A stretch of DNA of 64,000 nt from NCBI GenBank assembly GCA_002773535.1, contig PFAZ01000002.1, positions 2,285-66,284 on the forward strand, in the 5' to 3' direction. Positions 38,291 through 44,328 of the stretch are shown here, piece by piece. Under the pieces are notes generated by a model. It was not told the DNA's origin, did no database searches, and worked only from the letters and a program-made list of their open reading frames with translations. Positions within the stretch are counted from its first letter, which is position 1, and each line of letters starts with the position of its first letter. The stretch is from Candidatus Harrisonbacteria bacterium CG10_big_fil_rev_8_21_14_0_10_40_38. Its GTDB lineage: Bacteria > Patescibacteriota > Minisyncoccia > UBA6257 > 1-14-0-10-40-38. Made by a program: the position numbers and the translations under genes.

Positions 38291-38633
38291 CAAATCAAAA
38301 CATCGGTGAGGTACAGCATTCTTACGCTTTCCGTTATGAAGAACGTTGTGGTTATTAAATCAAAACGACTTTTAGTACTCCTTGGCTAAACACGTTACCG
38401 TGCGTACACCTAGAGCCTATCAACGTGGTAATCTTCCACGAGTCGCCACGCACAGAGCACGCAATGATTGATTAAAATCATACACTGCGTGCTCTGCACG
38501 CTAACACCTTATCTTGGGATGGGCTTCGTGCTTAGATGCTTTCAGCGCTTATCCCTTCCGAACATAGCTACTCGGCAATTCACCTGGTGGCAAAGCCGAT
38601 AGACCAGCGGTTCGTTCAGCCCGGTCCTCTCGT

Positions 38634-39417
38634 CACGTAATCCCCTATTTCTAGGAGCGTAGACTATATCTTCACCCTTCTCGCATCGCGAGATTAGGGT
38701 GTCAGCATGTTACCTGCATAAACCTGTCTGAAATTCAGACTTTCCAGTTTACACAAGTCCAATTCGTCAGTTAACGAATTAAGTCGTTACGGGGTCAAAC
38801 CTAAAGTTTTCAATATTTCCCCCTCGGTTCTCTTCTTGCGAGTTTTATAATTCTCATTTTGAACCTTCAAAATATTTTTAGCCAACATCCTAAGCTCTTT
38901 TTCGGAACGAGATCGTTTTTTAAGTATACGAGCTGACTCGATAAGAAGTTTTGCTTGAATTTCTTTAAATTTAATAAATGGGAGTAATTGAACAAGTATT
39001 TTTTCAACCTGCTCGTGTCCATTTATCCGCAATTCAGAAATTCCATCATTTCTTCTCGAAATATACCCAATACCAAACACATCTCTAATCCAAAATAGAG
39101 GCTTTTCATGACGGGAATCTTGATAAAAACAAATCGTTAGCATAAACCTATGCCTGGATTTATTCCCATCTTTGCGCTTCTTGAGTTGAAACATCAAACT
39201 TCCATCACCATCAAGAAAACCCGCAATATAAGCTAAATAAACTTTAAGTCGACTTCCCACGGTATTATCTTAAATATCTTATGGTCCTCAAGTAATATAC
39301 CATATCTAGCAGACCGTTACCAGATAGTTTTTATCCATAGACCAAAAAATATATGAAGACTTCACCGTTATAAGCTGAATTGTCAATCCGCCTTTCGACG
39401 GAAAGTAGCAATTTCTT
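38634..39417 (-). mobile_element. Group I intron 1 in the 23S, inserted between the equivalents of E. coli U2656 and A2657 (sarcin-ricin loop)
   Basis: The exon junction is CCUAGU | ... G | ACGAGAGGACC; the 5' exon ends in U and the intron ends in G, as group I introns require. It contains a LAGLIDADG ORF. Confidence 0.7.
38787..39260 (-). CDS. Single-motif LAGLIDADG homing endonuclease (encoded in intron 1)
   Basis: 157 aa; LAYIAGFLDGDGS motif near the N-terminus. Confidence 0.85.
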   Translation of the reverse strand: MGSRLKVYLAYIAGFLDGDGSLMFQLKKRKDGNKSRHRFMLTICFYQDSRHEKPLFWIRDVFGIGYISRRNDGISELRINGHEQVEKILVQLLPFIKFKEIQAKLLIESARILKKRSRSEKELRMLAKNILKVQNENYKTRKKRTEGEILKTLGLTP

Positions 39418-39479
39418 ACTAGGGCCGACTTCCCTCAAGTGTTCACGCCTGCAGCAGATAGAGACCAACCTGTCTCACG

Positions 39480-40208
39480 CAATAAATTATTATTTACCCA
39501 CCATTACTGATGGTTTGGACTATACCACCACCCCGCACATCGCGGGGGACCGACGTATTAACCGATCTTTAAAGATCGATTCCGTCCCAAATTTATGGAA
39601 CAAGTCTCTAAGGGGTCAATGTACGACGTTTTCGTTTTTTCGAATAATTAAGATCTCTGAAATTATCAACTAACTCTGCCAAGACAAGAAAATCAGATTC
39701 CGTCTTAACTTCATCTTTTTTAGTTAAAATAAGTTTCATAAGCTCAACTTGCTTCTTCTTAAGAAGAACATATGGCTCTATTGCTTCCAAAAGTGTTAAT
39801 ACATCCTGTCTTTTACCGATTATATACTCCAAAATTTCATCTTTTCTTTCTCGTATATATCCCAAACCAACAAGATTGCACACTTTCTCAAAATTTTCCC
39901 GACATTTTGATGATTGAAAAAATACTATGTAAGGCGAAATTTGAAACCCAAATTTATATGATGAATTTGGTTTCATTTGAACATAGATACTTCCATCACC
40001 AACGAGAAAACCAGCAATATATGCCTTTTGATTTGACGAAAAAACCATACACGACTTCCCTCGGTATTATCCTAACATATGACAGGTTAATCAATAAATT
40101 GTTAGGACTTCACCGATATGAGTCAGTTTTTTCCATAGAAAATTGCTTTTCTAGGCCGCCGTGTTCGATTGTCTTTTGCCTTTTTAGGCAAAAAGGGTTC
40201 ATTTTTTG
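39480..40208 (-). mobile_element. Group I intron 2 in the 23S, at the I-CreI / L2593 homing site
   Basis: Exon context ...GGGUUCAAACCGU | intron | CGUGAGACAGGUUGG matches the I-CreI target CAAAACGTC^GTGAGACAGTTTGG; the 5' exon ends in U and the intron ends in G. Confidence 0.8.
39608..40048 (-). CDS. Single-motif LAGLIDADG homing endonuclease (I-CreI-like, encoded in intron 2)
   Basis: 146 aa; AYIAGFLVGDGS motif. Confidence 0.85.
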   Translation of the reverse strand: MVFSSNQKAYIAGFLVGDGSIYVQMKPNSSYKFGFQISPYIVFFQSSKCRENFEKVCNLVGLGYIRERKDEILEYIIGKRQDVLTLLEAIEPYVLLKKKQVELMKLILTKKDEVKTESDFLVLAELVDNFRDLNYSKKRKRRTLTP

Positions 40209-41111
40209 ACGGTTTGAACCCAGCTCGCGTGCCCTTTTAAGTGGCGAACAGCCACACGCTTGGGAGCTTCTCCACCCCCGCGCTAGGGCGAGCCGACATC
40301 GAGGTGCCGAGCTTCGTCGTCGCTGTGGACGCTCGGACGAAACCAGCCTGTTATCCCCGGAGTAACTTTTAGCCGATGTCTTCGGCCTTTCTATAGAGAG
40401 CCGTCGGGTCACTAAGTTCTGCTTTCGCACCTGCTCGACTTGTAGGTCTCGCAGTTAAGCTGGCTTGTGCCTTTACACGTCAAGCGCGATTTCCATCCGC
40501 GCTAAGCCAACCTTAATAAACTCCTCCGCTACCTTTTAGGAGGAAAACGCCCCATTTAAACTGCCCGGCAGGCACTGTCCCTCATGGTTTTTGCCCATGG
40601 GGTTAGACGTTAAAATACAAAAGATGGGTGTTTCATTGGCGACTCCACGTCACCCGAAAGCGACGCTTCAAAGTCTCCCCACTACGCTACGCAAGTGCAT
40701 CCTAAAGCCAATACCAACCTACAGTAAAGCTTCCGGGGTCTTTTCGTCTTGCTGCAGGTACCCCGCGTCTTCACGGGGATCGCATTTTCACCGAGCTCTT
40801 CGCTGAGACAGTTCCCCAGTCGTTACGCCATTCGTGCGCTTCGGAACTTACCCGAAAAGGAATTGCGCTACCTTTGGACGGTTATAGTTACCGCCGACAT
40901 TGACGAGGGCTTCGGGCAGTGGGCAGAACGTATTGCTACATAACACCCCCACCGTTAACCTTCTCGCATCGGTCAGGCGTCACCCCCTATACATAGACTT
41001 ACGTCTTCGCAGGGAGCTGTGTTTTTGATAAACAGTCGCCAGGGATACTTTCGCTGCGGCCTCATCGAAACTGGAAGAAGGAGCGGAACCTCTGTTCCGC
41101 AAAGTTTTTTT

Positions 41112-41190
41112 TGGTAGAGGCGGAAGGACTTGAACCTCCAACCTTCTCGCCTTTAGCGAGACGCTCTAGTCTTTTTTGAGCTACGCCCCT
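41112..41190 (-). ncRNA. tRNA-like element A inside the 23S insertion (anticodon-loop CUAAAGG, encoded CCA)
   Basis: AGGGGCG-TA-GCTC-AAAAAAGACTA-GAGC-G-TCTCG-CTAAAGG-CGAGA-AGGTT-GGAGG-TTCAAGT-CCTTC-CGCCTCT-A-CCA. All four stems pair; the D-loop lacks G18G19; position 34 is A. Confidence 0.5.
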
Positions 41191-41216
41191 ACATAAAAAC
41201 TACAAAATGAAGTAAA

Positions 41217-41291
41217 TGGAGCTGACTGGAGGACTTGAACCTCCACACATGGGGGTTATATCCCAATGCGCTACCATTGAGCTAAGCCAGC
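41217..41291 (-). ncRNA. tRNA-like element B inside the 23S insertion (anticodon-loop AUAUAAC, encoded CCA)
   Basis: GCTGGCT-TA-GCTC-AATGGTA-GCGC-A-TTGGG-ATATAAC-CCCCA-TGTGT-GGAGG-TTCAAGT-CCTCC-AGTCAGC-T-CCA. The T-arm is identical to element A. Confidence 0.5.
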
Positions 41292-42424
41292 TCATTTTTC
41301 CTTCTTCCAGTCCCGATAAGGCAGGCCTTATTGCTAACGTACGGCCGCTTTTTTGCCGAGTTCCTTAGCGAAGAATCACTCGTTCCCCTTGGGCTTCTCG
41401 CCCTATCCACCAGTGTCGGTTTACGGTACGATGCCGAACATACTAACCTTAGAAGCTTTTCTCGGAAGGCTCTTCAGTTTAATTGATTAGGTAAGAACCT
41501 AATCTTTCCTCAATGCGCGAAATTTGCCATTAAAGGCAGACAGCGGGATTTTCCTCACTGCCAAGTCTTAACACAAAGGACGCCAAACCATTAAGACGAT
41601 AAACCTTTTGTCCTCCGTCCCTCCATCGAATATGTCCGGCGGGCAGGAATATTAACCTGCTTCCCATCGCGTTCAGCTTTCGCCATCCGCTTAGGATCGC
41701 CTAACCCGTGGATGATTGCCATTGCCACGGAAACCTTGGATTTTCGGGGTGCCCGTTTCTCACGGACAGTGTGGTTACTCATACCAACATTCTCACCTCC
41801 CAGCGTTCCAGTTGCCCTCGCGGGTCAACCTTCAACACACTAGGAGCGCTCTCCTACCGCTCATGAATTCCACCAAAGAGACATAAATCTCCTCAGTGGA
41901 ATTCACGAACCCGCACCTTCGGTGGCGTGCTTAAGCCCCGATACATTTTCGGCGCCACCAACCGTCGAATAGTGAGTTGTTACACACTCTTTAAAGGGTG
42001 GCTACCTCTAAGCCAACCTCCTATCTGTCACTGGTTGATGACTACCTTTAACACTGAGCACGCACTTAGGGACCTTAGATAGCGGTCTGGGCTGTTCCCC
42101 TCGCGAACATGGAGCTTAGCCCCCACGTTCTAACTACTATTCATCCGTTATGGTATTCGGAGTTTGATCGAACAGTCGAGCTTGCGCCCATTACTGCTCA
42201 TCCAGTGCTCTACCCCCATATCGTTTTTAAATAGCGCTAGCCCTAAAGCTATTTCGGAGAGAACCAGCTATTACCAGGCTCGATTAGCTTTTCACTTCTT
42301 ACCCCAGATCATCCGAGGGTGTTGCACAACCCACCGGTTCGGACCTCCCCCCACTGTTACGTGGGGTTCATCCTGTCCAGGGCAAGCTCGCACTGGCTTC
42401 GGGTCTTACACATGCTGCTTACTA

Positions 42425-42477
42425 CCTATGACTTACGACGTACGGCAAATAAATTGCGCGTAAATCGTAAGTCAAAG
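42425..42477 (-). other. Extended hairpin at the 23S helix-25 position (IVS-like expansion)
   Basis: A 10-bp inverted repeat TGACTTACGA / TCGTAAGTCA enclosing ~28 nt, at the equivalent of E. coli ~nt 545, a known IVS hotspot. Confidence 0.35.
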
Positions 42478-42669
42478 TAGGAATCGCCCTTTTAAGACTC
42501 GCTTTCGCTACGCCTTCTCCCGCTAAGCGGGATTAAACATTGCAACATATATAAACTCGTTGGTTCATTCTTCAATAGGCACCGCGTTACCCGATCCCGC
42601 ATTGCTGCGGGACCCGAGCTTCGCGTCTTTGTAAGCGTATGGTTTCAGATTCTATTTCATCCCCCTTCC

Positions 42670-42712
<43 letters not shown>

Positions 42713-43354
42713 ATCACGAAATGTATTTAGCCTTACCGGATAGTACCGGCAGATTCCTTCAAGGTTGTTTTGCCTCGAAGTACTCAAGAACGAAGAAATT
42801 GGTCGCTACAGCTTTCGCGTACAGGGCTGTCACCTTCTCTGGCCTCGCATTCCAACGAGTTCCACTAGCTGAGCAATTTGTAACCAATCATAGCGACAAG
42901 CGACATAAGACAAACAACAAGAAAATACTTGTCGCAGTTCACATGTCGCATATCGCTAAATTTTCCTCGCCTTACAACCCCCATCAATCTTTCGATAAAT
43001 AGGTTTGGGCTCTTCCCGTTTGGCTCGCCGCTACTCAGGGAATAAACGTTTGTTCTCTTTTCCTCTGCTTACTGAGATGTTTCACTTCAGCAGGTGTACC
43101 TTCTACATTGCTGTAGAATCATGTCGGTTTACGACACGGGGTTTCCCCATTCGGAAATCTTCGGATCAAAGGTCGCTAAGCACCTCCCCGAAGCTTATCG
43201 CAGCCACGCCACGTCCTTCATCGCCATTTCGTGTCAAGGCATCCACCATACGCCCTTACGAGATCAATAACCACATTGTTCTTCATAACGGGAAACGTAT
43301 AAATGCTTTTTTGTACCTGTTACTAATTTGATTCAGATATTCATTTTTAAAAGC

Positions 43355-43641: not shown

Positions 43642-44328
43642 TTATTTGTGATGAGTCATCTCATCTCTTATCTTAGAAAGCCACTGATGAGCATGATCTT
43701 TCCCTCCAAGACCGAAAGCCAATCCCCCAGCCAAAGCAAGCATAGCGACAAGTCCGGTGATAAGAGTATTAATCACCTGAACCGCAACGCCAAGCTGAAC
43801 CAATGCGGCTAAAAATCCAAATACCACAATACCCCACCATGCGATCATGGATAGAGATTTTGCAGCATGAAGTTTTGCACCCATTACAGAAGCGCGCACT
43901 AAACCTTTTACAAAGTTTGCAGCAACCAATGCAACAAGAAGAATGAGAGATGCAACAATTACCCTAGGAATATAATGCAAGACTTCTCGAAGGAAAGCTG
44001 ACAAATCTGAAAGGCCTAAAACGTTTGAAGCCGCAAGGAATGTAAGAACTAAGAAAAACCAGTAAACCAGTCTTCCCAAAAACACTCCCGCATTAAGCCT
44101 CATATTGCTTCTTGCCAGAAAACCATCAAAGCCAGTCTGCCTAAGAAGAGAATCTACTTTAAGGTAATAAACTAGTCTTTCCACCAATCGCTCCAAGCCA
44201 GATGCTACAATGAGTCCAATTATAAGAAGTATAATTGCGCCAATAAGATCAGGAAGAAAACCAGCTACTTGTAAAAGTAATTCCTGAAAAGAACCGACGA
44301 ATGCGTCAATCCATGTTTGAACTGTCAT
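43642..44328 (-). CDS. Membrane protein with repeated conserved-TM-helix modules (MscS-associated TM_helix-like)
   Basis: 228 aa; repeated helices such as LLQVAGFLPDLIGAIILLIIGLIVA. The family assignment is tentative. Confidence 0.4.
   Translation of the reverse strand: MTVQTWIDAFVGSFQELLLQVAGFLPDLIGAIILLIIGLIVASGLERLVERLVYYLKVDSLLRQTGFDGFLARSNMRLNAGVFLGRLVYWFFLVLTFLAASNVLGLSDLSAFLREVLHYIPRVIVASLILLVALVAANFVKGLVRASVMGAKLHAAKSLSMIAWWGIVVFGFLAALVQLGVAVQVINTLITGLVAMLALAGGLAFGLGGKDHAHQWLSKIRDEMTHHK

Follow-up and report, generated by a model that had tools for sequence, protein, structure and literature searches.

We analysed a stretch of 64,000 nucleotides of Candidatus Harrisonbacteria DNA (contig PFAZ01000002.1; the window) and in particular its 23S rRNA gene, which is interrupted by two insertions. 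An earlier note on this DNA had described them as group I introns encoding single-motif LAGLIDADG endonucleases, one at the I-CreI site (L2593) and one in the sarcin-ricin loop (SRL). The 23S-5S rRNA unit lies on the minus strand (Rfam LSU_rRNA_bacteria, RF02541, 2042.9 bits). Along the RNA the 2593 intron comes first, followed by the SRL intron. We refer to them as intron A and intron B, respectively.

38345..43269, minus strand: 23S rRNA gene, about 4.9 kb including insertions (5' end from Rfam, 3' end approximate; BLAST/MAFFT against E. coli 23S)
40208 to 39480, minus strand: intron A (intron 2 of the earlier note), 729 nt, group I, after U2593; IA-like with P7.1/P7.2
39418..39479, minus strand: exon between the introns, 62 nt, E. 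coli 2594-2656
39417 to 38634, minus strand: intron B (intron 1 of the earlier note), 784 nt, group I, between U2656 and A2657; long P5 extension, P7.1/P7.2
38292-38174, minus strand: 5S rRNA (Rfam)

Rfam squeezed the full 23S model into positions 40139-43269 and missed the final 1.8 kb of the gene. BLAST against the annotated E. coli 23S extended the gene past the Rfam-called boundary at 40139. In the numbering of the E. coli record, positions 1772-2597 were matched down to 40208, positions 2597-2663 corresponded to 39479-39414 and positions 2660-2768 to 38633-38525. This numbering is 3 ahead of the standard one. It was calibrated on AGUACGAGAGGACC (A2654-C2667) and CGUCGUGAGACAG (C2591...), and checked also on the GAGA tetraloop (A2660/G2661) and A2602. 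For annotation, the two introns account for the mishandling of this 23S gene by Rfam and by gene callers.

When both introns were removed, the global alignment to E. coli 23S was gap-free across both junctions, after U2593 and after U2656, and the exons were fully conserved at functional sites. The alignment bore out the insertion at L2593 as well as the one between U2656 and A2657 inside the SRL. The earlier note had named a shift of the exon alignment out of the SRL as a refutation; the alignment stayed in place and the insertion did not move outside the loop. The coordinates, junction sequences and open reading frame (ORF) sizes given in that note were all exact, and the strand, which it had left unstated, is the minus strand. 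With slashes for splice sites, intron A reads ...GGGUUCAAACCGU / 40208..39480 ending ...UUAUUG / CGUGAGACAGGUUGG (boundary bases AACCGU/...UUG/CGUGAGACAG) and intron B reads ...GGCCCUAGU / 39417..38634 ending ...UACGUG / ACGAGAGGACCGGG (boundary bases CCCUAGU/AAGAAAUUGCUA...ACGUG/ACGAGAGGACC). By sequence alone each junction may slide by 1 nt, and only the register given here yields an exon U together with an intron G. In this register both 5' exons end in U and both introns end in G, as had been claimed. The predicted ligated exons are ...AACCGU-CGUGAG... at 2593 and ...CCUAGU-ACGAGAGG... in the SRL.

An Rfam search at the gathering threshold called neither intron. In E-value mode, Intron_gpI (RF00028) aligned with positions 38641-38785 of intron B (29.6 bits, E=3e-5) and 39497-39608 of intron A (18.5 bits). 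Both alignments covered the conserved J8/7-P7-P9 half of the core, with the hallmark AAGAUAUAGUC / GGUAUAGUCC as well as the P9 hairpin. The ORF-less L2593 homologue in locus L024 exceeded the Rfam threshold (63.7 bits), and another intron, in L025, scored 79.4 bits. Since an ORF of about 450 nt splits each core, we tested the fold comparatively. For this purpose, 25 sequences of the intron B family (alignment A1) and 13 sequences of the intron A family (alignment A2) were aligned and their pairs were counted. As a control, the pairing partners were slid by 1-3 columns. Whole-intron MAFFT alignments were unusable in the P5 extension and in P7.1/P7.2; hence trimmed core constructs were aligned for the intron B family, and the covariation counts cover the core helices.

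In the intron B family, 97.4% of the cells of P1, P2, P3, P4, P5, P7 and P9 were paired, compared with 29-48% after sliding (n = 25). There, 22 of 38 pairs were altered on both sides, and none of 500 shuffles matched the observed covariation score. In the intron A family, P1-P10 were 93.2% paired, compared with 36-41% after sliding (n = 13), and 22 of 50 pairs were compensated. Compensatory changes were seen in P2, P3, P5, P7 and P9. The splice-site U.G was invariant (25/25 for intron B, 13/13 for intron A), P1 was 100% paired, and a terminal G stood next to the 3' exon in every homologue of both families. Intron A has G(A)GACU/AGUCC as its P7 guanosine site, intron B has A(C)GACU/AGUCU, and AAGAUAUAGUC fits the Rfam consensus. 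P8 could not be scored by columns, as MAFFT sets its strands in different registers (64.7% paired); a hairpin was there in every sequence. Predicted P7.1/P7.2 hairpins lie between P7 and P3' in both introns. The earlier note had stated that its proposal would fall if no P1-P9 core could be folded; the core was foldable and was supported by covariation. Judged from these comparisons, both insertions are group I introns.

These data bear on another possible class of insertion, the intervening sequence (IVS) excised in RNase III fashion without re-ligation, after which base pairing would hold the pieces of the 23S together. IVSs of this fragmenting type are known from bacterial 23S genes and have been suspected at other sites in the Candidate Phyla Radiation (CPR) (PMC11270868), and helix 63 of the gene studied here bears an insertion flanked by a stem. 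Both elements described here, in contrast, possess a complete covarying group I core, the invariant U.G and the terminal G. They lack a long flanking stem and are located at 2593 and 2656, not in helices 9, 25 or 45. Breaks in the SRL, with its bulged-G motif, or next to the peptidyl-transferase centre are probably not tolerated by the ribosome and probably incompatible with function. We therefore rejected the RNase III-type class on flanking stem, core and position, and consider it very unlikely.

The group I assignment is supported by the individual elements of both introns, all on the minus strand.

40163-40156, minus strand: intron A internal guide CACGGCGG; GCGG pairs with 5' exon CCGU (P1, U.G at the splice site), CACG pairs with 3' exon CGUG (P10)
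40195..40201, minus strand: intron A second exon-binding segment UGAACCC, complementary to 5' exon GGGUUCA (2581-2587; window 40222-40216), 7 bp
40060-40053 with 39617-39612, minus strand: intron A P6, GGGAAGUC with GACCCC, flanking the ORF
39517..39530, minus strand: intron A J8/7 and P7 3' strand UGGUGGUAUAGUCC, pairing with P7 5' GAGACUU (39608-39602); Rfam alignment
39406..39421, minus strand: intron B P1 hairpin, exon UAGU plus intron AA, GAAA loop, UUGCUA; U2656 pairs with G
39258-39251 with 38796-38791, minus strand: intron B P6, GGGAAGUC with GACCCC, flanking the ORF
38702..38706, minus strand: intron B P3 3' strand GCUGA, pairing with UCAGC (39378-39374)
38661..38672, minus strand: intron B J8/7 and P7 3' strand AAGAUAUAGUCU, pairing with P7 5' A-(C)-GACU (38787-38781); Rfam alignment

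The guide of intron A is the reverse complement of the ligated CCGU/CGUG with a single G.U wobble at the splice site, and P10 was 98% paired across the 13 sequences of its family. Besides the P1 guide, L2593 introns of the CPR carry a second exon-binding segment, which pairs with the 5' exon at -13..-4 (GGGUUCAAAC). It paired at 10/10 positions in 12 of 18 related L2593 introns (L008-L036) and tracked the exon variants (CAAAC/GUUUG, CAGAC/GUCUG, UAGAC/GUCUA). As this segment is located upstream of the GGCGG guide, its pairing and that of P1 would either form a pseudoknot or alternate. P7 of the intron A family was 100% paired, with one compensated pair.

In the intron B family we observed an exon-intron compensatory change in L020, where exon CAGU and guide GCUG replace UAGU/GCUA. 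P6 of intron B is GGG-AA-GUC / GAC-CCC, in which GUC/GAC is changed to GUU/AAC in L011, L012 and L016. P7 was 100% paired in this family, with A-U replaced by G-C in L005. In P3, 4 of 5 pairs were doubly changed and 98.4% of cells were paired; together P3 and P7 make up the group I pseudoknot. We assigned [G/A]-bulge-GACU to the 5' strand of P7 and GGGAAGUC/GACCCC to P6 around the ORF because the ORF-less L2593 introns show this arrangement. A different assignment, which took CGACUU (38786-38781) for the 3' strand of P6 and the downstream AGAC/GGAC for P7, was rejected; that helix was invariant and 88.7% paired.

Each intron holds one ORF, in L6.

39608..40048, minus strand: intron A ORF, 146 aa, ATG start, single-motif LAGLIDADG, in L6; Pfam LAGLIDADG_1 46.7 bits
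38787..39260, minus strand: intron B ORF, 157 aa, GTG start, single-motif LAGLIDADG, in L6; Pfam LAGLIDADG_1 36.4 bits; its stop UAA abuts P7

Both ORFs contain one LAGLIDADG_1 domain above the Pfam threshold. The best solved relatives of the two proteins were I-CreI, I-MsoI and I-CvuI. The 146-aa protein matched at E=6e-21 (I-CreI) and the 157-aa protein at about 3e-14, with E about 1e-14 for I-CreI/I-MsoI. The aspartate of the GDGS motif and the equivalents of Gln47 and Lys98 aligned with I-CreI-derived chains in both proteins; D19, Q47 and K99 were invariant in a 42-member family alignment. Pfam, the I-CreI alignment and the catalytic residues thus agree with the single-motif, I-CreI-like character proposed for these ORFs. 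The AlphaFold (AF2) model of the 157-aa protein (pLDDT 91) has an alpha-beta-beta-alpha-beta-beta-alpha core. Its top PDB matches were I-CreI, I-CvuI and I-MsoI (TM 0.78-0.85), and Foldseek superposed it on I-CreI with TM 0.84 and a root-mean-square deviation of 2.2 Å. We found 2,581 relatives of this protein at E<=1e-5, more than 120 of them at least 60% identical; the named ones were labelled Patescibacteria, Parcubacteria or Blackburnbacteria.

The ends of the ORFs are embedded in the ribozyme core. The first codons overlap the 5' strand of P6; at the other end, Thr-Pro-stop (ACCCCGUAA/ACCCCUUAG) is encoded by nucleotides that also serve as the 3' strand of P6 and as J6/7 (38787-38796, 39608-39617). 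ORF-less introns retain the RNA motif ACCCGUAGAGACU, which indicates that the RNA imposes constraints on the ORF ends and that the intron families are paralogous. The intron A and intron B proteins are 33% identical to each other, and, on this identity, the common core motifs and the same ORF placement, we regard the two introns as paralogous.

Some LAGLIDADG proteins act as maturases (cited in PMC11270868). It could be proposed that the ribozymes are not self-sufficient and that splicing needs such a maturase or host factors, the endonuclease or endonucleases having possibly lost cleavage. The overlap of the ORF ends with P6 and J6/7 would suit this proposal, as would the lack of P10 in intron B and the retention of an intron in L037, where the endonuclease was not detectable. 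The invariant catalytic Asp, Gln and Lys argue instead for kept nuclease activity, and endonuclease-less relatives keep an intact core, so the RNA can do without the protein. We give dependence on a maturase or host factors a slight chance.

To follow the distribution of intron B, we searched the GTDB species genomes with the 157-aa protein and obtained 32 loci, all in CPR-type metagenome-assembled genomes (MAGs). The intron was inserted exactly at CCUAGU/...G/ACGAGAGGACC in all 31 CPR loci with a readable junction. The impression recorded in the earlier note, that the SRL is an uncommon position, did not hold within the CPR, where the site is recurrent and published (2657, 23IS14; PMC11270868) and the same bond is interrupted in 31 further genomes. 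In 19 of the same loci there was also a 2593 intron ending ...G/CGUGAGACAG; these were mostly ORF-less and 288-783 nt long. Relatives with RpoB 76-81% identical kept the order 23S-5S-x-ftsW-yceG-rpoB-rpoC and varied in the content of the SRL. In L039 and L040 the SRL intron was 801 nt long with a 67.5% identical endonuclease, in L037 it was 654 nt long, and L041 and L042 had no SRL intron and an intact TAGTACGAGAGGACC. Such a pattern of introns with an endonuclease, without one, or absent is what would be expected of homing elements that invade, degenerate and are lost.

The 2593 target, CAAACCGTCGT/GAGACAGGTTG, is a partial palindrome (7/11) with the same centre as the I-CreI site. The SRL target, CGGCCCTAGTA/CGAGAGGACCG, is also a partial palindrome (6/11), centred 1 bp off the insertion point; the centres of both targets lie 1-3 bp from the insertion point. 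Partly palindromic targets fit homodimeric enzymes, and this pseudo-palindromy is the feature from which we infer dimerisation and DNA cleavage.

The window derives from a MAG, so an assembly chimera or a dead rRNA pseudogene was considered. However, identical DNA was found in independent ENA and JGI assemblies, and more than 30 other genomes show the same architecture; with its junctions returning in dozens of independent genomes, the observation lies far outside what chance would produce. Full conservation of the exons at functional sites was noted above, and CPR genomes usually have a single 23S gene (PMC11270868). Both explanations were rejected on these grounds and appear extremely improbable. 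The RpoB of the window is 100% identical to a protein of a Ca. Harrisonbacteria MAG, and its near relatives were all from the CPR (Patescibacteria/Parcubacteria), which establishes host membership.

Taken together, we hold with high confidence that the single 23S gene of this Ca. Harrisonbacteria genome contains two mobile group I introns with I-CreI-type endonucleases. Several points weigh against this. Both introns score under the Rfam gathering score (29.6 and 18.5 vs 50 bits), and only the part downstream of the ORF was aligned, presumably because the ORF splits the core. Intron B is essentially without P10 pairing to the 3' exon. The second exon-binding element of intron A would form a pseudoknot with P1 if both were paired simultaneously. 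The ORF of intron B starts with GUG inside the P4/P6 region, without an obvious Shine-Dalgarno sequence. I-ShaI, the sole CPR enzyme to have been assayed, originates from a site other than 2657 (PMC11270868). Splicing is inferred, as is translation from GUG and AUG.

We propose the following course of events. The 23S precursor would be transcribed with both introns, each of which would adopt a group I ribozyme fold. Both exons would be aligned by the guide CACGGCGG in intron A; in intron B the compact P1 hairpin (UAGU/AA-GAAA-UUGCUA) would display U2656 in a U.G wobble. The first attack, after the splice-site U, would come from an external guanosine bound in P7; the released exon would then attack behind the intron's terminal G, and ligation would rebuild the peptidyl-transferase-proximal segment (2593) and the SRL (2656/2657). 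The I-CreI-type protein of about 150 aa encoded in L6 would, as a homodimer, cut intron-less, partly palindromic rDNA, and repair from an intron-containing copy would spread the intron (homing).

The SRL intron splits the bulged-G motif that activates EF-G and EF-Tu; the precursor would therefore be nonfunctional as a large subunit until it is spliced. Ribosomes of such a cell would thus rely on precise splicing within an element that translation factors need for the activation of their GTPase. In CPR bacteria, with their single rRNA operon, the SRL intron might be something beyond a parasite. Splicing of the SRL intron may then be an obligatory, possibly regulated checkpoint of ribosome maturation, with the encoded protein perhaps serving as a maturase, which is a speculation of low probability. 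Our result confirms, at the resolution of base pairs, that the SRL, which is among the most conserved RNA sequences, has been colonised by homing endonucleases in the CPR. The family of about 157 aa is also a ready-made candidate meganuclease. Its presumed target of 20-22 bp (GGCCCTAGTACGAGAGGACC) is nearly universal in rDNA.

Insertions were found in 82% of CPR 23S genes by Tsurumaki et al. 2024 (J Bacteriol, PMC11270868), who reported LAGLIDADG_1 genes concentrated at 1917, 1931, 1952, 2593, 2604 and 2657, and group I introns at 23IS14 as unreported in other bacteria. Introns A and B agree with the 23IS12 (2593) and 23IS14 (2657) insertions of that study in host group and position and in combining a group-I-like RNA with a single-domain LAGLIDADG_1 ORF. 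There is no difference in kind; the published account gives positions and Rfam/Pfam classes and leaves the SRL unmentioned. Both sites are hence already known for the CPR. Since the 2024 paper had linked them to LAGLIDADG_1, what we describe belongs to a published class and does not represent a new type of element. What we add is structure at the level of base pairs, the exact junction, the target palindrome and presence or absence among relatives. Our literature search did not find the SRL position outside the CPR, and the L2656/L2657 nomenclature was traced solely to PMC11270868. A text search of the supplement of that paper did not find 23IS14, 2657 or Harrisonbacteria.

At L2593, introns that carry a single-motif LAGLIDADG gene are a classical feature of chloroplasts (I-CreI) and are known from cyanobacteria (PMC1995217). 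Intron A occupies the same site as Cr.LSU, the I-CreI intron of the Chlamydomonas reinhardtii chloroplast 23S (I-MsoI and I-CvuI belong to the same site), and encodes an enzyme of the same single-motif, homodimer-type family. The half-sites of its target are CAAAC...GTTTG-like and are centred as in the I-CreI site. It differs from the I-CreI intron in its bacterial host, in protein identity (about 30%) and in LVGDGS instead of VDGDGS. The enzyme of intron B has the I-CreI fold and a different site, at which it presumably cuts. The cyanobacterial L2593 introns of Synechococcus C1/C9 and Thermosynechococcus elongatus (Haugen et al. 2007, PMC1995217) are about 745 nt long with a single-motif LAGLIDADG gene. 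They have a short P2, a P7.1/P7.2 extension and ORFs that run into core helices, and intron A is alike; their hosts, in contrast, belong to a different phylum and are without an SRL intron. The introns of Coxiella (L1917/L1951), Thermotoga (L1917/L1931) and Simkania (L1931) are also LAGLIDADG-bearing group I introns in highly conserved 23S segments, but they occupy other sites, none of them in domain VI or the SRL.

We also noted further elements in the related loci. In L030 (1950-2026), L6 of the L2593 intron contains a tRNA-like sequence with an 8-nt anticodon loop and a CCA end (Rfam 58.4 bits), at the spot where other L2593 copies have the endonuclease gene. In L031 an intron follows GAGACAG, at the 2604 site. 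L039 and L040 (L039:2498-4550) carry extra LAGLIDADG_1 and LAGLIDADG_2 ORFs at upstream 23S sites. L037 and L038 (L037:16477-19027) carry bAvd and reverse-transcriptase genes downstream of rpoC, a signature of a diversity-generating retroelement.

In the window, neither a 16S gene nor spacer tRNAs adjoin the 23S gene (flanks 43642-44328 and 38104-28337). Its neighbours are a mechanosensitive-channel gene upstream and, downstream, the 5S gene, an ORF of 255 aa of unknown function, ftsW, yceG, rpoB and rpoC; the gene order around 23S is kept in relatives. Compared with E. coli, the gene has more insertions that are not introns, all on the minus strand: about 80 nt in domain I (about 42885-42962) and a smaller one at about 42600, near model position 583, both from the Rfam alignment. 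In addition, a hairpin near E. coli 2790-2800 is expanded by about 36 nt (about 38432-38498).

The most notable by-product of the analysis, unrelated to the introns, concerns helix 63 of the 23S (E. coli about 1707-1751; window 41060-41310, minus strand). It is replaced by a perfect 12-bp stem, CUGGAAGAAGGA/UCCUUCUUCCAG, which encloses two tRNA-like units in tandem.

41291-41217, minus strand: tRNA-like unit 1, Rfam tRNA 47.8 bits; ARAGORN Tyr-AUA; encoded CCA
41190-41112, minus strand: tRNA-like unit 2, Rfam tRNA 54.2 bits; ARAGORN Phe-AAA; encoded CCA

Unit 2 has G3.U70 and A73, the alanine identity signature, and an abnormal anticodon arm. A published description of such helix-63 modules was not found in our literature search. 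In a metagenome scan for the tRNA-like D-arm motif, 28 of 29 matches lacked the helix-63 flank of 23S, many of them being ordinary tRNA clusters, and only L046 lay in helix 63. In L025 (425-834) helix 63 contains a GIY-YIG-like ORF, judged from the translated sequence. The tRNA-like modules might be sites of RNase P/Z processing that fragment the 23S, or surface expansion modules. A homologous helix-63 stem, with two or three modules and degenerate anticodon loops, was observed in two CPR MAGs (L008:7-182 and L046:6831-7101).

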